From Nitrospirota bacterium (GTDB lineage: Bacteria > Nitrospirota > Nitrospiria > Nitrospirales > Nitrospiraceae): 64,000 nucleotides of DNA. Of the stretch, positions 3,691-57,653 are shown piece by piece (position 1 is the first letter of the stretch; each line of letters begins with the position of its first letter). The notes beneath the pieces were generated by a model, which did not search any database, had not been told where the DNA came from, and saw only the letters and a list, made by a program, of their open reading frames with translations. Position numbers and translations under genes: made by a program. Location of the stretch: the NCBI GenBank assembly GCA_963701855.1, contig CAVPBK010000005.1, forward strand, positions 224,001 to 288,000. The letters are read 5' to 3'.

Positions 3691-3816
3691 ATCAGAATGC
3701 TCAAAGAGGCCGTCCAGCAAGGCCGCAGCGAGCGAAGAGGCCAGGCGTACGCTTCGGTACGTTGAACCTCTGAGCGATGCGAGAACGATGCTGGCGGACT
3801 TTTTCAGCATTCTGAT
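3691..3816. mobile_element. 126-bp MITE-like element with about 27-bp imperfect terminal inverted repeats
   Basis: ATCAGAATGCTCAAAGAGGCCGTCCAGC ... GCTGGCGGACTTTTTCAGCATTCTGAT; related ends at 2567 and 52847. Confidence 0.7.
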
Positions 3817-10046: not shown

Positions 10047-10718
10047 ACCCGCCATGAAGCAAGTCGAGAAGTGGCTGAAGCTTTCTGTGCTCCCTCCAAT
10101 CGGGGCTGCGGTGATTCGAGGGCTGGGGCGGTCTATGCAGATGGATTCGCAAGGCCACGAGCAGGTGGATGCGTTGTATCGTCAGGGCAGGCATATCATC
10201 CTTGCGTTTTGGCATGCGCAGCAACTCATGGTCCCGACAGGCTATCGTGGAACAGGGGCTAACGTGTTGATCAGCCAGCATCAGGATGGTGAGATTATTG
10301 CGCGCATCATCTCTCGATTCGGGCATCGGGCGGTTCGTGGGTCGAGCACCAGGGGCGGAGCCCTTGCATTACGGGAGCTGATCCGCCTTGGGCGATCCGG
10401 AGCTGATCTGGTGGTGACTCCCGATGGACCCAAGGGGCCTCGCCAGGTTGCGAAACTCGGCGTGGTTCAGCTGGCAAAGGCGACCGGGCTTCCGATTGTG
10501 CCCCTGGCCTTTAGTTGCTCAAAAAAAAAATCTTCGCAAGCTGGGATCGGTTCATGGTCCCGTATCCATGGTCCCGAGGTCTCTATCTCTGGGGCGCTCC
10601 CATCTGTGTTCCACGAGATGCTGATGAGCAGGCGTTGGAGGCGGCATGCCTGGAGCTTGAGACGGTCCTGAATCGACTGACGGATCAAGCGGAAGAGGCC
10701 GTGAAACGTGAAACGTGA
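10039..10718 (+). CDS. DUF374 lysophospholipid-acyltransferase-like protein, split by a frameshift at the A10 run (10521-10530)
   Basis: FWH, DGE, VRGSS, TPDGPKGP in the first frame; expected SWDRFMVPYPWSR tail continues in the -1 frame to 10718. Confidence 0.8.
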
Positions 10719-10784
10719 AACGTTAAACGTAAGGAGTCCAGGGGCGTCGTTTTACCTTTCACCTTTCCCGTCTCACGTTTAACG
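10700..10784. repeat. Inverted heptamer-array hairpin (CGTGAAA family), empty; clearest example
   Basis: CGTGAAA x3-CGTTAAA-CGTAAGG, 15-nt loop, TTTTACC-TTTCACC-TTTCCCG-TCTCACG-TTTAACG. Confidence 0.9.
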
Positions 10785-10791
10785 CGCAGCC

Positions 10792-12219
10792 ATGTGGCGT
10801 CTCTTCTACAACATTCTGTTGCTGGTTGTTTCGCCGCTCATCGTGGCGGTCCTGCTGGCCAAGCGACGGTGCCGTCCCGGACTGCTTCAACGTCTGGGAA
10901 TAGGAAATAGTCTATCTGGGCTGTCTGGTCTATCTCGTCGACCGGATCAACCAGATAGACCAAACGAACCAGACAGACCTGATAGACCATCCCAACCAGT
11001 CATCTGGATTCACGCCGTTTCTCTTGGTGAAGTGGTGGCGGTGACACCCCTCGTCCACGAGCTCCATCGCCGTCATCCTGCGTACCTCCTGGTGGTCTCG
11101 ACGGTGACCGAGACCGGGCGGGAAGCAGTGGAGCAGCGGTTGGCCGGCGTGGCAGAACACTGTTATGCGCCGCTCGATTTCCCTTGGGTTGTTTCTCTGT
11201 TCATCGAACGATTGCAACCCTGCCTCTATCTGTTCGTCGAGACCGAACTCTGGCCGAATCTCTTGTGGCATCTGCGTCAGCGTGGAGTACCGACCGCTCT
11301 TGTGAACGGCCGGCTCTCGACCAGGTCTTTTGCACGGCAGCGGTGGGCGCCCGTGCGATCGTTCTATCGGACGATGTTGCAGACGCTCAGCCTCTGCCTG
11401 ATGCAGTCGGACCGGGACGTTGATCGTATCGTTGCGCTGGGAGCAGAGGCGTCGCGGGTCAGGCGAACAGGGAATATCAAGTTTGACCAGCCGATACCGG
11501 TTGTCGCGGAGGGTGCGACGACCAGGGCTCATCTTGGGCTTCAGGATACGGAACAGCTGTTTGTGGCAGGCAGTACCCATCCCGGCGAAGAAGAAATCCT
11601 CGTGGAATGCTATCGGGCGCTCGTGGCACGCTATTCCTCAGCGGTCTTATTGCTGGCACCTCGACACATTGAGCGAGCGGAATCGGTAGAGGCGATGATT
11701 CGGGCGCGCGGGCTCGCGGTGCAGCGACGCAGCACTATTGGGCAGGCCGGCGCGCGGAGGTCTACTGGTCCTCGTGTGGTGGTGCTCGATTCACGGGGGG
11801 AATTGGCTGCGATCTACCGGGAAGCGGTGGTGGCGTTTGTCGGAGGCACACTCGTTCCGATTGGTGGACACAATTTGCTGGAGCCGGCTCAGTGGGCAAA
11901 ACCGGTGTTATTCGGTCTCTACACTGACCATTGTGCGGAGATAGCAGATTTATTGATCCAGGCGGGAGGGGGCCGCATGGTTCTTCATGCGGAGGATCTC
12001 ACGCAACAAGTCATGGCCCTCTTTTCCGATGACAAGGAACGGGAGCGGATGGGCCGGTCGGCTCGTCAGGTGGTCGAACAGAATCAGGGAGCCTTGCAAC
12101 GGACGATGGAGGCCATCGATAGATTGCTGATACCGAATCAAGGCACCAGTGGGTCTCTTCTTGCAGACCGGTCGCTTTCCCTCACGGCTGAGAAAAGTGG
12201 CACCTACTCAGGTAGATAA
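10792..12219 (+). CDS. waaA: Kdo transferase with an in-frame repeat insertion
   Basis: IWIHAVSLGE, ETELWPN, GNIKFD, APRHIER, GGHNLLEPA motifs. Confidence 0.95.
   Translation: MWRLFYNILLLVVSPLIVAVLLAKRRCRPGLLQRLGIGNSLSGLSGLSRRPDQPDRPNEPDRPDRPSQPVIWIHAVSLGEVVAVTPLVHELHRRHPAYLLVVSTVTETGREAVEQRLAGVAEHCYAPLDFPWVVSLFIERLQPCLYLFVETELWPNLLWHLRQRGVPTALVNGRLSTRSFARQRWAPVRSFYRTMLQTLSLCLMQSDRDVDRIVALGAEASRVRRTGNIKFDQPIPVVAEGATTRAHLGLQDTEQLFVAGSTHPGEEEILVECYRALVARYSSAVLLLAPRHIERAESVEAMIRARGLAVQRRSTIGQAGARRSTGPRVVVLDSRGELAAIYREAVVAFVGGTLVPIGGHNLLEPAQWAKPVLFGLYTDHCAEIADLLIQAGGGRMVLHAEDLTQQVMALFSDDKERERMGRSARQVVEQNQGALQRTMEAIDRLLIPNQGTSGSLLADRSLSLTAEKSGTYSGR
10910..10988. repeat. Inverted nonamer hairpin in frame inside waaA
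   Basis: GTCTATCTG-GGCTGTCTG-GTCTATCTC then CCGGATCAA-CCAGATAGA-CCAAACGAA-CCAGACAGA-CCTGATAGA; encodes SLSGLSGLSRRPDQPDRPNEPDRPDRP. Confidence 0.9.
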
Positions 12220-12349
12220 GCTGAAGGCTGTTAGGGGTCAATCATGCGTGATCACACACAGCATCGGGAATTTGAGTCGGCTGATCGTAATCACTCGGGC
12301 AGATAGACTGAAGGTTTCAGCCTTCAGCCTTCGGCTTGAACACCTGAGT
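12205..12349 (+). mobile_element. GCTGAAG-family cassette carrying a deleted four-helix-bundle gene remnant
   Basis: Arms TACTCAGGTAGATAAGCTGAAGGCTG / CAGCCTTCGGCTTGAACACCTGAGT; ATG 12244 encodes MRDHTQHREFESAD, similar to [14 protein letters not shown] at 15175. Confidence 0.8.
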
Positions 12350-12360
12350 CGGTACGAAAC

Positions 12361-13443: not shown

Positions 13444-15146
13444 ATAAAGACTCAATAAAGAGAATTCTTGTGCGTGGACCTAACTGGCTTGGCGATGCGG
13501 TGATGTGTGAGCCCGCGCTCCGTGGATTGCGGAGGCTATTCCCCGACGCTCAGATTGCGCTGTTGGTCAAGCCGGCTGTAGCCGATTTGTTCGCAGGCCA
13601 TCCGTCATTGACGCGCGTGTTGACCTACGACACCAAGGGGCACCATGCGGGACTCTCCGGTAAGTGGGGTCTGGCTGGGCAGTTGCGTCGGCAAGGCTTC
13701 GACCTGGCGGTGTTGTTTCAGAATGCGTTTGAGGCGGCGTTTCTGACGTTCCTGGCCGGCGTGCCTCGGCGCTATGGGTATGCAACAGACGGACGAAGTC
13801 TGCTGCTGTCAGATCCAGTTGTTACGCCGGATCGCCGCTCGCTAGTCCATCAGGTTCGCTATTATTGGGACATGCTGGAACCGCTGGGCCTCAAGGGCGA
13901 CCCTTCTGCACCAGAACTCGCCGTTTTTCCTGAGGAGGAACAGGCGATGGCGGGGAGATTTGCCCAGGGCGGATTGTCCGCCACGGATGTCGTCGTCGGG
14001 GTCAATCCAGGTTCGACCTACGGTGGGGCCAAACGCTGGTTGCCTGAACGGTTTGCCGAGGTCACGGAACGACTCTGCAGCACAATTCGCGAATCTCGCG
14101 GACAACAAGCCAGCGTGGTCATTTTTGGAGCCAAGGGAGAAGAGCGTTTGGGTCAGGAGATTGCTGAGCGTCTGACGTCCCCATCTCTGGTCTTGTCCGG
14201 GGCAACGACGATCCGGGAACTCATGGCAGCGGTGAAACGGTGTGCCATGCTCCTTACGAATGATACCGGTCCCATGCACATCGCGTCTGCGTTTCAGGTG
14301 CCGGTCGTCGCGATTTTCGGGCCGACCGATTGGCGCACCACGTCGCCCTTTGGGAGCGCCCATGCCATTGTGCGTCAGCCGGTCGATTGCGCACCCTGCC
14401 TATTGCGTGAATGTCCTATCGACCATAGGTGCATGACGCGGGTGACGGTGGATCAAGTCTATGAAGTGGGTCTGTCTAGCCTTTCTAGTCTGTCTGGTCG
14501 AAAAGCTCTATCTGGTCTATCTCGTCCGAACCAGACAAACAAGACAGACCTCTCCCACCAGATAGACCAGACAAACATTCTCGATGGTGTCACTGTGTTT
14601 CTGGATCGAGATGGAACATTGAACTACGATCCAGGCTATTTGAAAATCGCCGCTGATCTGAAGTTGTTGGCGGGGGTTGGGCCGGCTCTCGCGCGGTTGA
14701 AAGGGGCCGGTGCGAAATTAGTGGTCGTGACCAACCAATCCGGTGTTGGCCGTGGAATTGTGACCCTCAAGGATCTGGAAGCGATTCATGCCCGCCTACA
14801 AGGTATTTTGGAACAGGAGGACGCGGCGCTGGATGCGATCTATTTTTGCCCGCACCATCCTGACGATGGCTGCCGCTGCCGCAAACCGAATGTCGGAATG
14901 GTGGAACGGGCTGTGTCAGAGTTGCAACTGGATCTCCGACGTTCCTATTTGATTGGCGATCACGCGCGCGATATACAATTGGCACACAAGGTTGGAGCCA
15001 AGGCTATTTTGATTACGACCACGCAGGTGGACGCGCAGTCGATGGATAGGCTTAAGGTTGAACAGGCCATGCCTGATGCCGTGGCGAAGTCTATGACTGA
15101 GGCAGTTGACTGGATCCTGAATGACGTGAAGACACTACTCAGATAG
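13440..15146 (+). CDS. waaF: Heptosyltransferase II (GT9) fused to a GmhB-like heptose bisphosphate phosphatase (HAD)
   Basis: PNWLGDAVM, AKRW, NDTGPMH at the N-terminus; FLDRDGTL, VTNQSG, CPHHP, CRKP, IGD at the C-terminus. Confidence 0.9.
   Translation: MNKDSIKRILVRGPNWLGDAVMCEPALRGLRRLFPDAQIALLVKPAVADLFAGHPSLTRVLTYDTKGHHAGLSGKWGLAGQLRRQGFDLAVLFQNAFEAAFLTFLAGVPRRYGYATDGRSLLLSDPVVTPDRRSLVHQVRYYWDMLEPLGLKGDPSAPELAVFPEEEQAMAGRFAQGGLSATDVVVGVNPGSTYGGAKRWLPERFAEVTERLCSTIRESRGQQASVVIFGAKGEERLGQEIAERLTSPSLVLSGATTIRELMAAVKRCAMLLTNDTGPMHIASAFQVPVVAIFGPTDWRTTSPFGSAHAIVRQPVDCAPCLLRECPIDHRCMTRVTVDQVYEVGLSSLSSLSGRKALSGLSRPNQTNKTDLSHQIDQTNILDGVTVFLDRDGTLNYDPGYLKIAADLKLLAGVGPALARLKGAGAKLVVVTNQSGVGRGIVTLKDLEAIHARLQGILEQEDAALDAIYFCPHHPDDGCRCRKPNVGMVERAVSELQLDLRRSYLIGDHARDIQLAHKVGAKAILITTTQVDAQSMDRLKVEQAMPDAVAKSMTEAVDWILNDVKTLLR
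14469..14576. repeat. Inverted nonamer hairpin forming the WaaF-GmhB linker
   Basis: GGTCTGTCT-AGCCTTTCT-AGTCTGTCT...GGTCTATCT then GAACCAGAC-AAACAAGAC-AGACC...CCAGATAGACCAGACAAAC. Confidence 0.85.
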
Positions 15147-15559
15147 ATAGGCTGAAGGCGTTTATGGGTTAAGCATGCGGGATGACACACAGCTTCGGGC
15201 ATTTGAGCTGGCAGATGAAGTGGTCATGTTAGCGTATCGGACAACCGCAGGGCTTCCAAAGGAAGAGATGTTTGGACTGACTTCTCAGATACGGCGGGCA
15301 GCAGGTTCAGTTCCTTCTAATATCGTGGAAGGTTGCGCTCGTGACAGTGAGACAGAGTAGCTCAGATTTCTCAATATCGCCTTCGGGTCGTTGAGGGAGC
15401 TACACTATCAAATAAATTTGTCGAAGCGCCTGGGCTTCTTGCCCCGGGAGAATTCATCTCTGCTTGAACCAAAGATCGTAGAAACCGAGAAGGTATTGAA
15501 TGGCTTGATTCGTGCTCTGCGAGATAATTCATAGCCTTCAGTCTTCAGCCTGAACACCT
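15136..15559 (+). mobile_element. GCTGAAG-family cassette enclosing a full-length four-helix-bundle gene
   Basis: Left arm TACTCAGATAGATAGGCTGAAGGC (contains the upstream stop); right arm AGCCTTCAGTCTTCAGCCTGAACACCT. Confidence 0.75.
15175..15534 (+). pseudogene. Four-helix-bundle (23S rRNA IVP family) gene with an internal TAG at 15358-15360
   Basis: [26 protein letters not shown]; the same frame continues LRFLNIAFGSLRELHYQ...LNGLIRALRDNS* after the stop. Confidence 0.88.
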
Positions 15560-17616: not shown

Positions 17617-18373
17617 GCTCTCGGTCTACGTGATCGCATACAACGACGAGCCTAATATGCGGGCCTGCCTTGAGTCTGTGGCAAGCTGGGGCGATGAATT
17701 GATCGTCGTGGATTCCCACAGTACGGACCAGACGGCCGCAATCAGTCGTGAGTTCACGGAGAAGGTCCATCAAGTCGACTTCAAAGGATTCGGCAATCTG
17801 CGCAATCAGGCAGTCGCCCTCACGACCCATGAGTGGGTCTTTAGTCTGGACAGCGATGAGAGGATGACGCCCGAGTTGCGGGAAGAGATTCAACTGCTGC
17901 TCGACCGGGAACCCGAGGCGGATGCCTACTTCGTCCCAAGAAAGAACTATTTTTTAGGCCGGTGGATCAAACATTGCGGCTGGTATCCCGACTATCGGCA
18001 ACCGCAGTTGTTTAGAAAGGGACGGTTTCGGTATCGCGAAGAACTGGTCCATGAGAGTTTCGACTGCGATGGGCAAGTCGGCTTTCTCAAGAGCCCCGCG
18101 CTGCAGTATCCCTTTCGGGACATCGATCATTACGTAGCGAAGCAGAATCGCTACTCGGAACTGATGGCCCGTCGCATGGTGGAGCAGGGCCGGCGGTTCT
18201 CTCCCCCTCAACTGATCACCCATCCGCTCGGCGCGTTTTTCAAGATGTATGTGCAGCGCACCGGCTTCCTTGACGGCATGCCCGGCTTGATTCTTTCCGG
18301 ACTCTATGCCTATTACACCGTCATGAAGTATGCGAAATTCTGGGAACTCACGAAAGACAAGATGTCTGCCTAG
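17609..18373 (+). CDS. GT2 glycosyltransferase (KdtX/WaaE-like)
   Basis: VVDSHSTD, LDSDE, GWYPD, VHE, GFLDG..G motifs. Confidence 0.88.
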   Translation: MSKLSVYVIAYNDEPNMRACLESVASWGDELIVVDSHSTDQTAAISREFTEKVHQVDFKGFGNLRNQAVALTTHEWVFSLDSDERMTPELREEIQLLLDREPEADAYFVPRKNYFLGRWIKHCGWYPDYRQPQLFRKGRFRYREELVHESFDCDGQVGFLKSPALQYPFRDIDHYVAKQNRYSELMARRMVEQGRRFSPPQLITHPLGAFFKMYVQRTGFLDGMPGLILSGLYAYYTVMKYAKFWELTKDKMSA

Positions 18374-18463
18374 TCTGTCTGGTCTATCCGGTCTGTTTGG
18401 TCCTTAAAATGTAAAGGCTTGATACTCGATAGACCAGATAGACCGAACAGACCAAAGAGACAC
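18363..18463. repeat. Inverted nonamer hairpin, empty
   Basis: AGTCTGTCT-GGTCTATCC-GGTCTGTTT-GGTC then GATAGACCA-GATAGACCG-AACAGACCA-AAGAGAC. Confidence 0.85.
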
Positions 18464-18468
18464 CAACT

Positions 18469-19317
18469 ATGAAAGTCAGCGGATTTACATTCGTGCGGAA
18501 CGTGGTGAAGTACGACTATCCGGTCGTGGAGTCGATCCGATCCATTTTGCCGGTGGTCGATGAATTTATCGTGAACGTCGGGCGGTGCGATGACGGCACG
18601 CTTGAGCTGATTCGCTCGATCGGTGATCCGAAGATCAGGATCGTGGAGTCGGTCTGGGATGAGACGCTGCGAAAAGACGGACTGATCTATGCCCAGCAGA
18701 CCAACATTGCGTTGTCACACTGTACCGGCGATTGGGCATTCTACATCCAAGCCGACGAGGTGGTGCACGAAGACGATTTGCCGATCATTCAGGAGGCCAT
18801 GCACCGCCATCTCGGCAATCCCGAAGTGAAAGGGCTTCTGTTCCGGTATCTGCATTTTATCGCGGACTATTGGTCGACGAATCCCTGGTTCTACCACAAA
18901 GCCGTGCGAATCATCAGGAACAGCGGCGAAGTGGAGTCTTGCGGCGATGCCGTGGGATTTCATCTCAAGGCGACGCAGCAGTATCTCCAGAGTGGACCGA
19001 AGGAATGGATTACTCCATCGAACGGGCGAATCTTTCACTATGGGTGGGTGAAAGACCCGAAAACGATGCTGGAAAAAAAGCGGGAGCAAGTGGCGGTCTA
19101 TCATGGAGGAGGCCATATTCCTGCCGCAGAGGCTAAACAACTGGCTCACGACAGCTTTCAGTTTGAAGACTATGCCATGTTGAAAGAATTCGGCGGATCG
19201 CATCCAACGGTGATGGCGGAACGTCTCCAATCCTCTCGGCGCTGGGCTGCCCGCCGCAATCGTTGGCTGAATCTCCAGTTTTATCGGGAAGTCTTTCGCC
19301 GTGGCTTTCGGGGATAA
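18469..19317 (+). CDS. GT2-like glycosyltransferase
   Basis: MKVSGFTFVRN, IQADE, FHYGWV. Confidence 0.82.
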   Translation: MKVSGFTFVRNVVKYDYPVVESIRSILPVVDEFIVNVGRCDDGTLELIRSIGDPKIRIVESVWDETLRKDGLIYAQQTNIALSHCTGDWAFYIQADEVVHEDDLPIIQEAMHRHLGNPEVKGLLFRYLHFIADYWSTNPWFYHKAVRIIRNSGEVESCGDAVGFHLKATQQYLQSGPKEWITPSNGRIFHYGWVKDPKTMLEKKREQVAVYHGGGHIPAAEAKQLAHDSFQFEDYAMLKEFGGSHPTVMAERLQSSRRWAARRNRWLNLQFYREVFRRGFRG

Positions 19318-26049: not shown

Positions 26050-26925
26050 TTACGCCACGGCCAACGAAGTTGACTCCTGTGCTGTTTGGGGCTGGTTGTG
26101 CTGGTGGTTGATGAACTCCATGGGTGTCAGATCCCCGATGGCACTGTGTGTCCGCTCTTCATTGTACTCTCGTCGCCAGGCTTCAATCACGAGCTGCGCT
26201 TCCTGTAGCGTCAGAAACCAGTGTTCATTGAGACATTCATCCCGAAACTTGCCGTTGAAGCTTTCGATAAACGCATTCTGGACGGGTTTTCCCGGCTGAA
26301 TAAAATGCAGATGCACGCCGTGGTGGGCGGCCCAGGCATCCAAGGCCGTCCCGGCGAATTCGGGACCGTTGTCCAGAATCAAGGTCTCCGGCAGCGGGCG
26401 AGTCAGAAACAGTCGATCCAGAATCCGACACACCCGCGCACCGCCGATCGAGACATCGACCTCAATCACCGGCACCTCTTTGGAGCAGGGATCCGTCATC
26501 GTCAAACACTTGAACCGCCGGCTCGTCACGAGCCGGTCATGCACAAAATCCATCGCGTAACAGTGTCCTGGTTGCGTGGGCTTCGGTAAGGTGACTCGTG
26601 GAACCGCCGCTGCTTCCTTCCGTCGCCGCCGAAGCGAGAGCCCTTCGTCGCGATAATACAGCCGTTCGACCTTCTTATGGTTCACAGCCCATCCCTCTCG
26701 GCGCAACCGTACATAAATCCGGGGACACCCATCGCGTCGCTTGCTCTCGGCAATCTCCCGGATCCGTGTCCGCAGAGCCGCATCGTCCTGACGTCAACTG
26801 CGATACCGCAGTGTGTTCCGATCGAGGGCCAGGACGTGGCACACCCGACGCTGACTGAGCCCGACGCGCTCGGCCATCCACTGCGCCGCCGCTCGCTTCG
26901 CCTTGGGCCCTACCAGTTTTTTGTG
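26050..26925 (-). pseudogene. IS3 OrfB DDE transposase with a premature TGA at 26794-26796
   Basis: [35 protein letters not shown]; the same frame continues across one stop. Confidence 0.85.
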
Positions 26926-27176
26926 GTGACCGCTATCAGCGCCTGAATGTCCAGCGCTTGCTCCGCCACCATCTGCGTCAATCGCCGATTTTCGTCTTCC
27001 AGCTGGCGGAGCTTCTTCACGTCGCTGACTTCCAGTCCCGCATACTTGGTCCGCCACTTATAAAACGTGGCGTCCGAGATGCCGTGCTTGCGGCAGAGCT
27101 CTGAGACCCCGATGCCCGCTTGGGCATCCTTGAGCACTGCGATGATCTGTTCCTCCGTGTGCCGTTTCCGTGTCAT
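26910..27176 (-). CDS. IS3 OrfA (HTH)
   Basis: HTEEQII, CRKHGISDATFYKW, LEDENRRL; ends in an A-AAA-AAC slippery site. Confidence 0.9.
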   Translation of the reverse strand: MTRKRHTEEQIIAVLKDAQAGIGVSELCRKHGISDATFYKWRTKYAGLEVSDVKKLRQLEDENRRLTQMVAEQALDIQALIAVTTKNW

Positions 27177-27343
27177 GGGCCCCTCCTATGGGCCCCATCT
27201 CAGCACAGTTGAACTTCCTAGCCAATGGTCTAGTTTCCGGGGGGAAGGTCAATGGCACAATCGCAAATCTTCCCAGCGCAAGAAATGACTATTGGTCAAC
27301 AGTGAGAGCGTCTCCGTCCCTGGCTCCTCGCTGAAAAATTTCC

Positions 27344-27378
27344 TTGACTACGCTAATCGTGCTGTTCATATTGTGAAC
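27344..27378 (+). promoter_or_regulatory. Putative sigma70 promoter with an overlapping palindromic operator
   Basis: TTGACT (27344-49), 17 bp, CATATT (27367-72); GTTCA-N5-TGAAC at 27364-27378. Confidence 0.5.
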
Positions 27379-27404
27379 GTCTGCTAAATTTATCCGTTTA
27401 ATTC

Positions 27405-27993
27405 ATGGATTTACAAGGTCAGCGAGACCTTCTTCTCCTCAGCGAACTCGATCGAGATGGCGGGGCCACTCAGCGCACCCTTGCCACTCAAACTTGGTGT
27501 CGCGCTTGGTCTGACCAATCTCTATCTCAAGCGTCTGGCCCGTAAGGGCTGCATCAAGATCACGACCATCCCGCGCAATCGAATCAGGTATCTCCTGACG
27601 CCACAGGGCTTTACGGAAAAGTCACGCTTGACCTATCTCTACATGCAGTATTCCCTCTCGTACTACCGAGACATGCGTACTCGGCTAAAAGAAATGATGG
27701 CGACGTTCGACGGCACTCATGGCCAGCGGGTTGTGATCTACGGGACGACCGAGTTAGCCGAATTGGCCTATCTGTCGCTTCGAGAGATGAATATCGACTG
27801 TGTGGGATTCATTGATGGAAGCTCGCGTGAGTCATTTCTATCTTGCCCGGTTTCTTCGCCGGATGGGATCGCTGGCTGGCAGTTTGATCGGGTGTTGATT
27901 GCGGATCTCGAGCATGCGGCAGCCTGTGAAGAACAGTTGGTGCAGTCGGGAGTGCCACGGGAAAAGGTACTGAGACTCGGCCTGCCTGAATAA
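27405..27993 (+). pseudogene. Winged-helix MarR-type regulator (EPS-associated type), frameshifted near 27488
   Basis: MDLQGQRDLLLLSEL..ATQRTLA then shift to KLGVALGLTNLYLKRL..YLLTPQGFTEKSRL. Confidence 0.75.
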
Positions 27994-28081
27994 GGCGTGG
28001 CGCTTCCGCTCGTGGTCGACATTGTGTGTGGTGCGTGCGATGTCGGATCTGTAAGTGAAAGGGCGGAGCTGTGTCCAAAGC

Positions 28082-28595
28082 GGTCTATCTGGTTGATGAG
28101 GTCTGTCTTGTCTATCTTGTGCGGGACCGGATCGATTGATGAGATAGACCTGATAGGACCGAACAGACGAGACAGACCTGTCTTATGAAAGTCAGCCGTT
28201 TTGAAGATTTGGATTGCTGGAAGGAAGCTCGCCAACTTACCCGACAGGTTTATGAAGCAATAGGGCGAAATCCCCTCTGGCAGAAGGATGTTCGGCTATG
28301 CGGGCAGATTCAAGCAGCATCTGTATCGGTGCTGTCGAACGTAGCTGAAGGATTCGTTCGGCATTCCGATAAAGAATTTGTGCAGTTCTTGTTTATAGCC
28401 ATGTCTTCAGCGGCAGAGACTCAGAGTCATGCCTATGTGGCTCTGGATCAAAAATATCTCTCCCAAGAGAGTTTTGATGCCATCTATGCACAAGCTGGGA
28501 AAACAAGTCGAATCATTTCAGGCCTCATTAAGTATCTCCGAAACAAGGCTGGCAAGACCAGATAGACCAGATAGACCAGATGGACCAGACAGACC
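28082..28595 (+). mobile_element. Nonamer-family cassette enclosing an intact four-helix-bundle gene
   Basis: Left arm GGTCTATCT/GGTCTGTCT 28082-28120; right-type arms at 28141-28179 and (AGACCAGAT)3-GGACCAGAC-AGACC at 28555-28595. Confidence 0.75.
28185..28565 (+). CDS. Four-helix-bundle protein (23S rRNA IVP family), intact
   Basis: RFEDLDCWKEAR, QIQAASVSVLSNVAEGF, EFVQFLFIA.SSAAE, LIKYL. Confidence 0.92.
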   Translation: MKVSRFEDLDCWKEARQLTRQVYEAIGRNPLWQKDVRLCGQIQAASVSVLSNVAEGFVRHSDKEFVQFLFIAMSSAAETQSHAYVALDQKYLSQESFDAIYAQAGKTSRIISGLIKYLRNKAGKTR

Positions 28596-29087
28596 ATTCA
28601 CTGCGTTGGTATGCGTTACGGACGCGGTCGCGTCACGAAAAGATGGTGCGCGACCAGCTTGCGAATCAAGGCATTGAGCCGTTATTGCCGACGGTCAAGC
28701 GAATGAGTCAATGGAAGGATCGGAAGAAAGAAATCGAAGTTCCGCTCTTTTCAGGATACTGCTTCGTCCGCTTTGCATCGGAGCAAAAGTTGCCGGTGCT
28801 CAAGACGATCGGAGTGGTCGACATTGTGGGCAGCCGGCCATTGCCCGGAGGCGATCCCGGACGAGGAGATTGCGGCGATCAAGACCCTGATGACCAGTGT
28901 GCTGCCCTACGATCCACATCCGTATCTGCACGAAGGCATGCAAGTGGAAGTGGTCCGAGGTCCGTTGCAAGGAGTGCACGGGATTCTCTTGCGCAAAGAA
29001 AAACACCATCGCCTCGTGTTGGGAGTCCGACTCATTCAGCAAGCCGCAGCCGTGGAGATCGATGTGAATGATGTGGTGCCGGTGTGA
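28580..29087 (+). pseudogene. UpxY/NusG-family antiterminator, frameshifted near 28835
   Basis: WYALRTRSRHEK, WKDRKK, PLFSGYCFV; KOW domain GMQVEVVRGPLQGVHG in the next frame. Confidence 0.85.
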
Positions 29088-29140
29088 TGGGAATGAAGTT
29101 TGGCGGGGAAATTCCTGTATCATGTAGCTAAGAGGCAGGT

Positions 29141-29545
29141 ATGCAGAAGCAAGACGAGAATCTTACACGATCGATCCTGGCCGTCCTCAACACACAGTCT
29201 GGGATCAGACTAGCCATTCTGTTCGGCTCGCTGGCCGCTGGTCGGGAGCAGGCAGACAGCGATGTGGACCTGGCAGTAGACGCCGGTCACCGCCTCACAG
29301 TCGGAGAGAAGCTGGCTCTGGTGACTGAGCTGGCGGAACGGACGGGTCGCCCGGTTGATCTGGTCGATCTCCACGCCGTTGGGGAACCACTTCTAGGCCA
29401 GATCCTCCGGCATGGGAAAAGATTGTTGGGGAGCGAGACGTGCTACGCCGACCTCATCCGCAGACACCTCTTCGATCAGGCGGACTACCTGCCATACCGC
29501 ACAAGAATCCTTGCTGAAAGGAGGCGGGCATGGATCGGGAAGTAA
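29141..29545 (+). CDS. Minimal nucleotidyltransferase (MntA-type antitoxin)
   Basis: LFGSLAAG...SDVDLAV, VDLVDL. Confidence 0.85.
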   Translation: MQKQDENLTRSILAVLNTQSGIRLAILFGSLAAGREQADSDVDLAVDAGHRLTVGEKLALVTELAERTGRPVDLVDLHAVGEPLLGQILRHGKRLLGSETCYADLIRRHLFDQADYLPYRTRILAERRRAWIGK

Positions 29546-29660
29546 TCGAGCAGAAGCTCGAATCCTTGCGTCGCTGTCTTCATCGTGTCGCGGAGAAATG
29601 TCCATCCGATCCGGTCACCCTGGGTCGTGACCTTGATCTTCAGGATATCGTTACCCTACC
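29530..29660 (+). pseudogene. Truncated HEPN/DUF86 (HepT-type) toxin, N-terminus only
   Basis: MDREVIEQKLESLRRCL..DLDLQDIVTL overlaps the MNT stop; no RxxxxH motif follows. Confidence 0.7.
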
Positions 29661-29833
29661 AAGATGCCGGCTGCTCCGTGTCTTCAACACGAGCCGAAAA
29701 ACAATAGTCATGGCAGCCACAATTTTGTAGACCCGAGACGCGTGCAGCGGCCGCCTGTAACCAACGGCGCCCGTCTGTACACAACACAATTCCGGAAGCA
29801 AAGACATCTTTCCACAGGGTCGCCGCCGCAAAC

Positions 29834-31162
29834 ATGCGCCGGGGCTCAATAAGACTCCCGACACCATTTCCTCTCCCTCTCGTCAGAACGGATTCGCGAA
29901 TGTCATCTTCCGGTGTCTGTGCGCCATCAATTTTTCATAACCGATTCTGGGCTCTGCAGTCAGCGGGATTAGTGCTTGTCGGTTTCGCGAGCTTGTTCCC
30001 ACCCCTCTACCACCTACAAGAGTATGTCTTTCTAGTACTCATGGCGGCAACTGTCCTCATGAGTCTTGGGCAGAAGACCGCACTGTGGATTCGGACACCT
30101 GTCGATCTCCCTCTGGGGTGTTTTCTTCTGTGGGTACTGTGTACCGTTCCGTTTGCAACGGATGTGTCGTACAGTTTCGCGGAGTGGAGGAAATTCCTCA
30201 CCCATGCACTGGTGTTCTACTGGGCGCTCCTCGTTCTCCATCGCTCAGGCCGTGAGTCCTTGCCGAAATATGTGTTGGTGGCTATCGCAGTCGGTGGAAC
30301 CCTGCTTGCGGGATACGCGCTAGTTGATTTTTTCGCGGCGGGAGGAACATGGAGAGATCGGTTGATTCGTGCACGAGCGATTGGATCCGATTATAATTGG
30401 CTTTCCACCTACATGGTCATTGCCATCCCGGTGCTAGGAGGTTTGTGGATCATATCTTATGCTCCATGGGTGCGGGTCACGCAGGTCCTGGCTCTGGTGC
30501 TGACGGGGTTGGCCCAGATATTTTCCTATACGCGCGCGGGGTGGGTAGCCCATGTTGTGCAAGGAGTTGTTCTGACGGTTGTCACGGGGCAGCGCCGTCT
30601 TGCGTTGGCGGTTCTAGGGGTTGGTACGGTCGCTGGATTAGTTTTGGTTCTGGCATTTTTCGCCGGATTTCAAGGAGACACGGTGAACGCGACAACCGTC
30701 GATAGCAGATTGACGGTATGGCGCATCGGGCTGCGAGAGATTCTTGCCCATCCTGTAGTGGGGATCGGCTATGGGAACGATTCATTTGTGAAGAAGTACC
30801 CTGAATACTCACCCCAGGCACAAAGTCACCTTCCTGTACCTGCTCAAGTCCTTCCTGCCATGCACAGTGCATTTCTCATGGTGTCGCTAGGAAGCGGCCT
30901 ACCTGCTCTCGTATGTTTCGTCTGGATCTTTGTGGCCCTACTGTGGCACTTGCTCTCGATTCGGTCTGCTGCTGGTGACAGCAAAGCATGGTCGCTGCTG
31001 GCAGTGGGAATCGGGATTGCGCTTGTGGGGTTTTCCGTGCGCAATATGTTTGATTACATGTTCACGGGCGGTCTGGCGCATTTATTCTGGCTCTTGGCTG
31101 CGGTGGGAGTGACGATCAAGACCTATAATCGTAATCTTAACGTCAGTGTTGTGGAGCAGTAG
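29834..31162 (+). CDS. O-antigen ligase/polymerase family membrane protein (start may be 29900)
   Basis: Many TM segments, YTRAGW, RLTVW, HPVVGIGYG, HSAFL. Confidence 0.8.
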   Translation: MRRGSIRLPTPFPLPLVRTDSRMSSSGVCAPSIFHNRFWALQSAGLVLVGFASLFPPLYHLQEYVFLVLMAATVLMSLGQKTALWIRTPVDLPLGCFLLWVLCTVPFATDVSYSFAEWRKFLTHALVFYWALLVLHRSGRESLPKYVLVAIAVGGTLLAGYALVDFFAAGGTWRDRLIRARAIGSDYNWLSTYMVIAIPVLGGLWIISYAPWVRVTQVLALVLTGLAQIFSYTRAGWVAHVVQGVVLTVVTGQRRLALAVLGVGTVAGLVLVLAFFAGFQGDTVNATTVDSRLTVWRIGLREILAHPVVGIGYGNDSFVKKYPEYSPQAQSHLPVPAQVLPAMHSAFLMVSLGSGLPALVCFVWIFVALLWHLLSIRSAAGDSKAWSLLAVGIGIALVGFSVRNMFDYMFTGGLAHLFWLLAAVGVTIKTYNRNLNVSVVEQ

Positions 31163-47411: not shown

Positions 47412-47834
47412 TAAGTAATAAGTAGTGAGTGTGGAGTAGGAAATGAAGATGGGTAAGCCACACGAGCGGCTCGATGCTCGGAAGTTCTCGATGGAATTGG
47501 CTAAGGCGGTGTATCAGATGACCTCGAATTTCCAGGCAGAGGAGCGTTATGGATTGGCGCAGCAAATGAGACGTGCGGCCGTCTCTATTCCGCGTAACCT
47601 TGCGGAGGGTGCGGGTCAAAAATAGCGGAAAGGAATACGTTCATTTCATCGGTTTTTTACGTGGTTCACTCGCGGAGCTAGAAACTCAGATGCAACTGTC
47701 GGTGATGCTCGGTTTTACAATTGCCGATCATGCCGCATTCGATTTGGCTGATCGGGCAGGAAAATTGTCAACCGGTCTGCACAAAAAATGGAGCGCAGCA
47801 TGACCCCACTCCCCAGTTCCCACTCACCACTCTC
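47403..47834 (+). mobile_element. AGTRAGT/CYCCACT heptamer cassette enclosing a four-helix-bundle gene
   Basis: GGTAAGT-AGTAAGT-AATAAGT-AGTGAGT-GTGGAGT ... CCCCACT-CCCCAGT-TCCCACT-CACCACT. Confidence 0.75.
47443..47803 (+). pseudogene. Four-helix-bundle gene, frameshifted at the A run near 47620
   Basis: EERYGLAQQMRRAAVSIPRNLAEG then SGKEYVHF..RGSLAELETQ in the next frame. Confidence 0.88.
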
Positions 47835-51053: not shown

Positions 51054-51440
51054 TCCATGGAAATGGAAGGTACTGGGGAAGAGCAATCAATCATCAGAAC
51101 ATTCGAAGACCTCGATGTCTGGAAGGTGTGCAGAGACCTAAGAACGCAGATTGCGACCATAGTGCGCACGTTTCCAAGGGAGGAGCAATATCGGTTGCGG
51201 GATCAACTTATCAGGGCATCACGATCTGTTACGGCCAATCTAGCAGAAGGGTACGGACGATTTCATTACGCGGAGAACATCCAGTTTGCGAGGCAGGCAA
51301 GGGGCTCGTTATACAAAATCATAGTTACTACTCAGGTAGATAGACGGAAGGCTACAGCCTTCAGCCTGAACCCCTGACGAGTTACCGATATTTATCAAAA
51401 GCAAGAACGTCATCACGCGGTTCACGATTAACGAGTAACG
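51005..51440 (+). mobile_element. CGTGAAA-family cassette enclosing a truncated four-helix gene and a nested empty GCTGAAG element (51329-51377)
   Basis: CGTTAAT-CGTGAAA-CGTTAAC-CGTGAAA ... GTTCACG-ATTAACG-AGTAACG. Confidence 0.75.
51057..51377 (+). pseudogene. Four-helix-bundle gene whose C-terminus is replaced by the nested element
   Basis: TFEDLDVWK, FPREEQYRLRDQLIRASRSVTANLAEGYGR, ARGSLY then repeat-derived TTQVDRRKATAFSLNP. Confidence 0.85.
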
Positions 51441-53939: not shown

Positions 53940-54944
53940 ATGGCACAGTTTTCTCTTACTTTAAGCAGATTTATCACCCAGAAGCAGGCGTCCCATCCAG
54001 GGGCCACCGGGGAACTTTCCAGTCTCCTGGTCCAGATCGGTCTGGTTGGTAAACTCATTGCGCAGGATCTCAGGCATGCAGGGATCATCGATATTCTGGG
54101 AACGACAGGCGAGATCAATGTGCAAGGGGAGACAGTTAAGAAGCTGGATGAGATTGCGAATGAGACATTTCTCAACGCATTTCACCAGAACGGGCTTGTG
54201 TGCGCATTGGCGTCTGAAGAGATGGAAAAGCCGGTCCTGCTGCCGGAGAATTGGCCGCAGGCCAAGTACATGTTGCTCTTCGATCCTCTCGATGGCTCAT
54301 CGAACACGGACTGCAACATGCCGCTCGGCGCGATTTTTTCCGTCGTGAAGTTCGAGCGCAAAGATCGGATGCCGACCGAGGATGACCTTGCTCGCAAGGG
54401 AACAGAGCAGGTAGCCGCTGGCTATCTCCTGTTCGGGTCAAGCACCATGCTGGTCTATACGGTTGGACAAGGAGTCCACGGGTTTACATTGGAGCCTGGC
54501 ATCGGCGAGTATCTCCTGTCCCACGAGCAGATCCGCATTCCTGCTCGAGGCAAGGTTTATGGCGTAAACGAAGGCAATTATCATAAATGGACGGCGGGCA
54601 CGAAGAAGTATGTGGACGACCTGAAGGTCTCGGATAAAAACGCGGGGAAGCCTTACAGTGTGCGCTATTCCGGTTGTCTGGTAGCCGACGTGCACCGGAT
54701 TCTCCTCGGGGGAGGCATTTATCTGTATCCCGGTGAGCTGGACAAGCCGGAGGGCAAGCTCCGATTGTTATACGAAGCGAATCCCCTGGCGTGGGTTGTG
54801 GAGCAGGCGGGCGGCAGGGCCAGCACCGGCACTATGCGAGTCCTCGACGTGGAGGCCAAACAACTGCATCAACGGGTGCCGTTGATTATCGGGAGTGCGG
54901 AGGACGTGCGCGATGCAGAGGCATTCATCCAAGGCAGACGTTAA
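53940..54944 (+). CDS. fbp: Class I fructose-1,6-bisphosphatase
   Basis: NVQGE..KKLD, SEE, FDPLDGSSN, RYSGCLVADVHR, KLRLLYEANP. Confidence 0.96.
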   Translation: MAQFSLTLSRFITQKQASHPGATGELSSLLVQIGLVGKLIAQDLRHAGIIDILGTTGEINVQGETVKKLDEIANETFLNAFHQNGLVCALASEEMEKPVLLPENWPQAKYMLLFDPLDGSSNTDCNMPLGAIFSVVKFERKDRMPTEDDLARKGTEQVAAGYLLFGSSTMLVYTVGQGVHGFTLEPGIGEYLLSHEQIRIPARGKVYGVNEGNYHKWTAGTKKYVDDLKVSDKNAGKPYSVRYSGCLVADVHRILLGGGIYLYPGELDKPEGKLRLLYEANPLAWVVEQAGGRASTGTMRVLDVEAKQLHQRVPLIIGSAEDVRDAEAFIQGRR

Positions 54945-55029
54945 GCGTGAAACGTGAAACGAGGAAAATCCGGCCAAGTTTTTGACGATTGGCGGTTCAC
55001 GTTTAACGAATAACGTTCACGAATCTACG
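54939..55029. repeat. Inverted CGTGAAA-family hairpin, empty
   Basis: CGTTAAG-CGTGAAA-CGTGAAA-CGAGGAA then TTTGACG-ATTGGCG-GTTCACG-TTTAACG-AATAACG-TTCACG. Confidence 0.85.
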
Positions 55030-57549: not shown

Positions 57550-57570
57550 CCAGTTGCGGAAGAATTATCA

Positions 57571-57653
57571 GGCTTATCGGGTTTGTTTTGTTTATCTGGT
57601 TAGCGTTGTTCAACCAAACAAACCAGACAAACAGGACAAGCCAAATGAACCAG
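57571..57653. repeat. Inverted nonamer hairpin, empty, degenerate
   Basis: GGTTTGTTT-TGTTTATCT-GGTTAGCGT then AACCAAACA-AACCAGACA-AACAGGACA-AGCCAAATG-AACCAG. Confidence 0.75.

Follow-up and report, generated by a model that had tools for sequence, protein, structure and literature searches.

The stretch of DNA analyzed here (the window, 64,000 nt; G000:C5:224001-288000) belongs to a Nitrospirota genome of 4.30 Mb in 15 contigs with ~55.6% G+C. It contains a supercluster for lipid A, lipopolysaccharide (LPS) core and exopolysaccharide (EPS), with hairpins built of 9-nt repeats (nonamers) at several gene junctions. One of these junctions, in an EPS/LPS operon leader, harbors a gene for a four-helix-bundle protein packed between three nonamer arrays. 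The gene together with its arms is referred to below as the cassette, and the gene itself as the cargo. It is preceded by a MarR-type regulator gene and followed by upxY, which encodes a NusG paralogue (Table 1).

Cargo, arms and leader of the cassette

The cargo gene is intact, as the initial annotation of this DNA had stated. Its open reading frame (ORF) of 126 aa gives a full-length match to PF05635 (96.8 bits, cut-off 33.8, positions 1-106 of the 106 in the profile) as well as 96 bits against TIGR02436 (23S_rRNA_IVP, cut-off 24). The closest solved structure found with a profile of the family alignment is 2gsc_A (XCC0516 from Xanthomonas, E 5e-28), followed by 2rld_A (E 1.8e-9). Median omega (dN/dS) of the cargo orthologues is 0.052 over 16 pairs with estimable dS, most pairs being saturated; between this cargo and that of locus L005 dN is 0.007 and dS 0.254. 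As judged from these comparisons, the protein is under purifying selection (omega ~0.05). Phage records contain no match to it at E 1e-5, and plasmids only distant homologues (17 records, every one below 60% identity).

The left arm is complementary to 28557-28595 over its whole 39 nt (79%, with a perfect 12-nt core; inverted repeats I1 and I9). Three shorter segments pair the left side with the proximal right arm, namely 28073-28090 with 28142-28159 (18 nt, 78%), 28099-28113 with 28165-28179 (15 nt, 93%) and 28103-28117 with 28142-28156 (15 nt, 80%). The two right arms share direct repeats D2 and D3, and the distal one contains both the stop codon of the cargo (TAG, 28563-28565) and the start codon of upxY (ATG, 28580-28582). 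The double complementarity of the left arm and the position of the distal arm across stop and start had been noticed in the initial annotation, and both were recovered here. A 14-mer of the arms, with at most three mismatches, matches the window 45 times compared to 3.98 ± 2.12 times in 100 shuffles; since none of the shuffles reached 45, the arm repeats are not a product of chance. The repeat unit of the cassette subfamily has the consensus A-R-A-C-C-A-R-A-Y. It is nearly mirror-symmetric (AGACCAGA is identical when read backwards), so that a reversed pattern matches the same arrays and is not valid as a control.

Folding of the RNA, suggested earlier as a check of the two pairings, demonstrates that both are stable. 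The local hairpin of the left and proximal arms has a predicted energy of -50.4 kcal/mol (z -2.5; equalled by 1 of 200 shuffles), and the 561-nt RNA one of -192.1 kcal/mol (z -3.7; 0 of 100 shuffles as good). In the latter both the minimum free energy and the centroid structure join the left arm to the distal one, the inverted flanks closing a stem with 39-nt arms around the ORF. The energies of the arm-only duplexes are -40.8 (left:proximal) and -54.3 kcal/mol (left:distal).

The MarR-type gene also flanks the site in relatives; it scores 43.5 bits against TIGR04176 (MarR_EPS), under the 88-bit cut-off. The leader motif GTAAGTGAAAGGGCGGAGCTG stands directly before the arms in 14 of 14 orthologous spacers and occurs only once in this genome. 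The motif is presumably similar to the ops element of E. coli. A scan for consensus promoters and terminators between the MarR stop codon and the left arm gave nothing, and no RNA family of Rfam matched in 27000-30000 at E up to 1. In the RNA libraries the region is represented by contigs of relatives only, in small shares; these extend over the flanking genes and into some of the leader and cargo, and one of them joins the end of the MarR-type gene, the hairpin and the 5' part of the cargo.

The upxY gene scores 70.7 bits against NF033644 (UpxY), under the 100-bit cut-off, with the gene frameshifted. In comparison with the intact 168-aa gene of locus L020 it has one extra base near 28831-28832 (within 28826-28840), which splits it over two frames (28580-29071 and 28773-29087). 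In 3 RNA libraries the contigs from relatives are one base shorter at 28832-28835. The frameshift is either a real pseudogene mutation or an assembly error.

Table 1. Coordinates of the cassette, its neighbours and the related elements of the window. Damage and arm types of the three damaged PF05635 genes are matched to their coordinates in listed order.
Feature	Position	Strand	Remarks
MarR-type regulator gene	27457..27993	+	ORF 178 aa; conserved upstream neighbour
Leader motif GTAAGTGAAAGGGCGGAGCTG	28051..28071	+	candidate ops-like element for the NusG paralogue
Left arm	28082..28120	+	GGTCTRTCT-type nonamers; complementary to both right arms
Proximal right arm	28141..28179	+	AGACNNRAY-type nonamers; ends 5 nt before the cargo ATG; inverted repeats I6, I7, I10
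Intact four-helix-bundle gene (cargo)	28185..28565	+	PF05635 / TIGR02436, S23p family; ORF 126 aa, no internal stop
Distal right arm	28555..28596	+	AGACCAGAT x 4.7; period-9 array, 90% matches, Tandem Repeats Finder score 70
upxY/RfaH-like NusG paralogue	28580..29087	+	PF02357 NusG, 64 bits
Damaged PF05635 gene	15190-15504		in-frame TAG; GCTGAAGG-type arms; after heptosyltransferase/GmhB gene
Damaged PF05635 gene	47467-47719		TAG or frameshift; GTAAGTA/AGTGAGT-type arms; rmlD-rmlA junction
Damaged PF05635 gene	51105-51320		ends at profile position 72; CGTGAAA-type arms; manC-pgm junction
Gene-less nonamer hairpins (6)	2439-2551, 10907-10990, 14469-14584, 18363-18462, 57565-57643, 59657-59737		
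Gene-less CGTGAAA heptamer hairpins (2)	10700-10784, 54938-55016		family of ~40 clusters genome-wide
Gene-less hairpin with GCTGAAGG-type arms of the 15190 cassette	12202-12353		94-nt loop

The same site and related loci in other genomes

The site between the MarR-type gene and upxY is filled, decayed, swapped or empty among relatives. Nonamer arms with a type-A gene, as found here, are present in G015, G006, G009, G018, G016 and G012, and the type-A gene is broken by one in-frame TGA each in G017 and G001. G011, G023 and G004 carry another four-helix gene (33-35% identical) with different 9-nt arms, and a match suggests the same for G020. The site of G010 is an emptied swap, with the second arm type and no gene (304 nt), and that of G003 contains only a bare nonamer hairpin, its MarR-upxY spacer being 165 nt long vs 606 nt here. 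Compared over these genomes, the cassette is seen to be inherited vertically across Nitrospira.

The bare hairpin of G003 is the deletion allele that the initial annotation had proposed to look for in relatives. In a tree of the two flanking genes, with 5 of 10 inner branches unresolved, G003 is sister to a filled allele (support 99/96) and lies within the spread of filled alleles; its bare hairpin is thus a derived loss. The right arm of G003 is similar to the distal arm that its closest filled relative carries. Loss of the gene that leaves an empty hairpin is therefore documented. The route proposed for it earlier, recombination between the two right arms, is compatible with this allele but not proven, because the repeats hide the breakpoints.

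The RNA libraries also yielded joins of 28117 to 28555/28557 across 28-32 other letters, and these were considered as a deletion allele of the present locus. This was rejected: they are bare nonamer hairpins, and they are not specific to the locus because 28 letters of side sequence could fit many hairpins of related genomes.

Relatives of the cargo were collected from contigs of one genome per species, giving 80 loci. About 45 of them are from Nitrospira and the others from metagenome-assembled genomes (MAGs) labelled Desulfobacterota, Planctomycetota, Omnitrophota, WOR-3, Bacteroidota, Spirochaetota, Binatia and Gammaproteobacteria. The closest named loci among those fetched are Nitrospira MAGs and Nitrospira moscoviensis (L027), a cultured relative with the same layout. 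To be testable a locus needed an ORF of 100-160 aa and flanks of 200 nt or more (63 of 80), and flank complementarity was scored by local alignment with shuffles and positional controls. Duplex energies of the 200-nt flanks were dropped as too noisy, because long sequences always find partners.

At 42 of the 63 loci the two flanks of the gene are more complementary than in any of 200 shuffles, and the score reaches at least 30 at 36/63 vs 1/121 positional controls. A period-9 array lies downstream of the gene at 56 loci and upstream at 38, with 0/63 for gene-internal controls. Direct and inverted signals together, the layout found here, are present at 27 loci, four of them outside Nitrospira; 13 have direct arrays only, 10 inverted only and 13 neither (positional controls 1/60). 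These classes are fuzzy, as the threshold for the direct signal is 28 and L020, the closest relative of this locus, scores 27. The proximal arm is absent at 10 loci, and several loci from Desulfobacterota and other groups have arrays in gene orientation on both sides with no complementary left array. Comparison of the flanks indicates that the conserved core is the pair of same-strand arrays on both sides and that the left arm is optional. The hairpin is not part of this core, since 13 of the 63 loci lack the left and 10 the proximal arm.

The nonamer itself is the same throughout. Base by base (A, A/G, A, C, C, A, A/G, A, C/T), the unit shows the same position frequencies at 32 Nitrospira-type loci and at 24 from other phyla, and the arrays range from 2 to more than 20 units. 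In G042 and G044, from other phyla, the arrays cluster near the gene's own locus, on one strand and between small genes. At 30 other-phylum loci the flanking ORFs are co-directional with the gene in 48 of 55 cases. Neighbours at other-phylum loci include a sugar/polysaccharide family at 11 loci, a NusG paralogue at 2 and a MarR-type gene at 1, and several of the loci adjoin parts of toxin-antitoxin systems. In Planctomycetota three loci lie between carA and carB, and two of the three are broken.

The distance from the cargo stop to the upxY start is within -4 to +40 nt at 36 of 38 Nitrospira-type loci (14 nt here), and at 22 of the 38 the two codons overlap as ATGA. Counting the empty allele, 8 of 9 nonamer alleles have a variant unit of the distal array as their upxY ATG; swapped alleles have this codon in a small palindrome. 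The ATG is inside the predicted span of the left:distal duplex at 33 of 37 Nitrospira-type loci. The sequences argue that translational coupling is a more conserved link between cargo and upxY than the hairpin.

Opposite the unit that holds the upxY ATG, the left arm of the left:distal stem is interrupted by a purine-rich segment, GGAAGAT or TGATGAG (28094-28101 / 28577-28584; L027). The interruption is kept in many Nitrospira left arms, and in some loci it places the start codon within an internal loop flanked by two near-perfect helices. That the ATG always occupies such a loop was considered and rejected: it is true of N. moscoviensis and is not general (unpaired in 9 of 33).

Nonamer hairpins and paralogous cassettes

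The genome contains ~98 nonamer hairpins, counted as 44 strict left-right pairs and those 55 of 120 solo arrays for which a partner lies on the hairpin side. In every one the left array precedes the right (reverse order 0). Most of the hairpins (85 of 98) are outside crude ORFs, and 61 are located between co-directional genes. The empty hairpins at 2439 and 18363, to which the outcome of a gene loss had been likened in the initial annotation, indeed belong to this family. PF05635 genes are six in number, four of them in the window; this one and one on contig C11 are intact. All six lie between complementary arrays of short repeats, each having its own 6-9-nt tandem repeat (Table 1).

The ORF directly after the empty hairpin at 18363 begins with the same 12 bases, ATGAAAGTCAGC, as the cargo. 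Over the first 18 bases (18469-18486 vs 28185-28202) 16 are alike, and the remaining protein is unrelated. No filled allele or PF05635 match was found at this site among the relatives searched; the spacer of G005 at the site is 891 nt. A second dispersed element, ending in ...GGCGGACTTTTTCAGCATCCTGCTA, stands directly beside several nonamer hairpins (2565-2600, 3795-3816 and others in the genome).

A degenerate pattern of three nonamer units was found in 24 of 24 genomes of the genus (13-628 forward matches) and in 1 of 16 genomes from other genera of the order. This one, G035 (15 forward matches), is also the sole genome of the 16 to carry a type-A gene, at 70% identity. Inside the genus, an intact type-A gene goes with 65-628 forward matches (8 genomes, this one among them) and a broken one with 107 and 20 (two genomes, the latter count being that of G001). 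The count is 13-33 in G003, G005 and G010, and 172-317 in G002, G004, G011, G013 and G023, five genomes that have no close type-A gene. The relation of count to gene is a trend among kin rather than a test; the relatives are not independent.

Likeness to known systems and possible explanations

Gene-bearing intervening sequences (IVSs) of 23S rRNA have been known for decades, and neither the role of their protein nor the spread of these elements has had an explanation. The IVSs of Coxiella, Leptospira, Brucella and Xanthomonas carry a cargo of the same family, PF05635, as the present locus. The gene likewise lies in the loop of a long stem of inverted flanks, with short tandem repeats upstream of the ORF, and in some lineages the ORF decays. 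According to PMC4990558, the IVS of Coxiella burnetii (helix 45) is excised by RNase III, and its S23p ORF is preceded by two to three tandem GACAGAT heptamers whose number varies between strains. The same source describes the ORF as decaying and probably untranslated, and the Xanthomonas homologue as a pentameric toroid. The element described here differs in its location: it sits in the leader of an mRNA, flanked by protein genes and outside any rRNA gene, and for this reason it is not a member of the IVSs. Its unit is of 9 nt, with direct arrays on both sides and an optional left arm. Strong purifying selection acts on its cargo, which is probably coupled to the next gene, in contrast to the Coxiella ORF with its probable lack of translation. 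By analogy of cargo, stem and repeats, the element probably works like an IVS.

Other systems are alike in part. Avd of diversity-generating retroelements belongs to the same Pfam family and is described as a small ring-forming four-helix bundle. Among the ORFs of 26500-30500 no reverse transcriptase, template or variable repeat was found beside the cargo; the genome was not searched for a reverse transcriptase. UpxY/RfaH leaders with an ops element also have a NusG paralogue heading a polysaccharide cluster, and the conserved leader motif found here may correspond to ops; the difference is that a whole gene and three repeat arms are placed between motif and upxY at the present locus. The text of the HEPN superfamily survey PMC3710099, as covered by a search for terms, does not mention the four-helix family. 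A figure legend of PMC10910872 names '23S rRNA IVP' among the proteins tied to CRISPR adaptation modules or arrays, and this entry may reflect repeats of such a kind. A literature search that included the arm sequence, with subscription journals and supplements outside its scope, gave no paper on PF05635 genes outside rRNA as repeat-armed cassettes.

The element is a member of a widespread class in which an S23p/PF05635 gene is packaged in short tandem repeats. As to the way in which it works, it is rather likely that it is an IVS-like nonamer-armed cassette which has become the translationally coupled first cistron of the upxY leader, with the left arm as an optional lid. Translation would then begin with the cargo, as the first cistron, and reach upxY by coupling: on finishing at the cargo stop, ribosomes would melt the distal array and initiate at the ATG that overlaps the stop or is a few bases away. 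During transcription the left arm would pair with the proximal arm first and could then re-pair with the better-matched distal arm. The latter pairing would close an IVS-like stem over the upxY start, a plausible substrate of RNase III, the gene of which (rnc) is encoded in the genome (250 bits vs a cut-off of 166). Between the two direct right arrays, recombination or slippage could remove the gene and leave empty hairpins. The locus shows the same gene family and the same repeat-armed packaging as in the rRNA, this time inside an mRNA leader where it has long been kept, with the cargo wired to the start codon of the antiterminator that heads a surface-polysaccharide cluster. The series of filled, broken, swapped and emptied sites together with the nonamer shared across phyla makes both the function of S23p proteins and the origin of junction repeats testable.

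Several results weigh against the coupled-cassette explanation. The cargo has no recognizable Shine-Dalgarno sequence, and upxY at this very locus is frameshifted and starts 14 nt after the cargo stop, not in an ATGA overlap. The left arm is absent at 13 of 63 loci, which have direct arrays only, so the hairpin is dispensable in the subfamily. Where the left:distal stem exists, its sense-strand mismatches are more often A.C than G.U (138 vs 79; 24 loci vs 11), which is opposite to the prediction under selection for a stem in the sense RNA; the right arrays are A-enriched relative to the complement of the left ones. The upxY ATG is fully paired in 13 of 33 cases, partly paired in 11 and unpaired in 9. 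Among the hairpins of the genome, those that fold better in the gene-sense strand outnumber the opposite cases only weakly (37 vs 21). The RNA-library contigs show presence across the leader but no transcript ends, and the breakpoints of the deletion cannot be placed within the repeats.

The two pairings of the left arm may be read in another way, which was the one put forward in the initial annotation, namely as a regulated RNA switch: the arm would mask the cargo start when paired with the proximal arm and the upxY start when paired with the distal one, and cargo and UpxY would toggle. The two pairings exclude each other and each is stable, the full RNA loses 19-28 kcal/mol of stability when one or the other arm is blocked, the three-arm layout recurs at 27 of 63 loci with four of them outside Nitrospira, and the upxY ATG is within the left:distal span at 33 of 37. 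A switch is physically possible; that it operates is unlikely. ATGA coupling (22/38) predicts that cargo and upxY are co-expressed rather than alternate, one of the two upstream arms is missing at 23 of 63 loci (left at 13, proximal at 10), the stems show the excess of A.C over G.U described above, and no Rfam family matches. Equally unlikely, by analogy with ring proteins that read repeats, is a portable protein-plus-operator module in which the four-helix protein, as a ring, would read its own nonamer array, e.g. (AGACCAGAU)5, in RNA or single-stranded DNA, each paralogue having its cognate repeat. Binding to the right arrays would compete with pairing of the left arm and thereby control start codons in ~100 nonamer hairpins. 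The purifying selection on the protein fits such a role, as do the co-occurrence of gene and A-R-A-C-C-A-R-A-Y unit across phyla with the same position frequencies, the private repeat family of each four-helix paralogue, arrays of ~5 units here and the pentameric toroid of the Xanthomonas homologue (PMC4990558). The distribution of the arrays points both ways: they occur in 24/24 genomes of the genus and in other genera only in the one genome (1/16, G035) with a type-A gene, and are numerous with an intact type-A gene (65-628) and few in G003, G005 and G010 (13-33) and in G001 (20), but G002, G004, G011, G013 and G023 are rich in arrays (172-317) with no close type-A gene, and these relatives are not independent. 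Moreover, array length varies from 2 to more than 20 units, and the heptamer hairpins persist in this genome although their cargo gene is truncated. If the protein does read its repeats, up to ~100 hairpin sites as well as upxY start codons would be set open or closed by it, and the proteins of rRNA IVSs and the short tandem repeats at operon junctions would both gain a function.

Regulation by a ring of this sort would resemble that by TRAP. In Bacillus the TRAP ring reads spaced (G/U)AG repeats in the trp leader, and alternative pairings decide expression. The likeness concerns the way of working only, a small ring protein beside a regularly spaced leader repeat; the folds are unrelated, and binding by the present protein is hypothetical.

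An explanation that treats the gene and its arms as strangers is very unlikely. According to it, the nonamer hairpins would be an independent family of dispersed elements resembling repetitive extragenic palindromes (REPs) or miniature inverted-repeat transposable elements, the gene would merely adjoin one of them, and the arms would be uninformative on the gene. The numbers in this genome, ~98 gene-less hairpins vs one nonamer-armed gene, would agree with it, and so would the four Y1 transposase (Y1_Tnp) genes encoded there. The locus is like REP/REPIN systems with REP-associated tyrosine transposases (RAYTs) in that a single-copy gene is flanked by the palindromic repeat that is dispersed ~100x in intergenic DNA. 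In contrast to these systems, the gene here is not a Y1 transposase, and tandem arrays of varying length stand in place of a fixed REP. None of the four Y1_Tnp genes is flanked by a nonamer cluster or adjoins a nonamer array, and RAYT-like mobilization of the arrays was rejected on this ground. Furthermore, the same subfamily is found with the same nonamer in MAGs of Desulfobacterota, Planctomycetota, Omnitrophota, Bacteroidota and Gammaproteobacteria, positional controls are flat (1/121 and 1/60), and the arrays of G042 and G044 lie mostly around the gene's own cluster.

Two further observations concern the surroundings of the cassette. Just upstream of the MarR-type gene, the minus strand of 26050-27176 contains overlapping ORFs of 88 aa and 218 aa that resemble, as judged by eye from their translations, two halves of an IS3-type transposase. 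After upxY, a nucleotidyltransferase gene (Polbeta/NTP_transf_2) lies in 29141-29730 with its end overlapped by a 66-aa ORF; the two are possibly a decayed MNT-HEPN pair. At locus L066 from Desulfobacterota a HepT-like gene adjoins the type-A gene.

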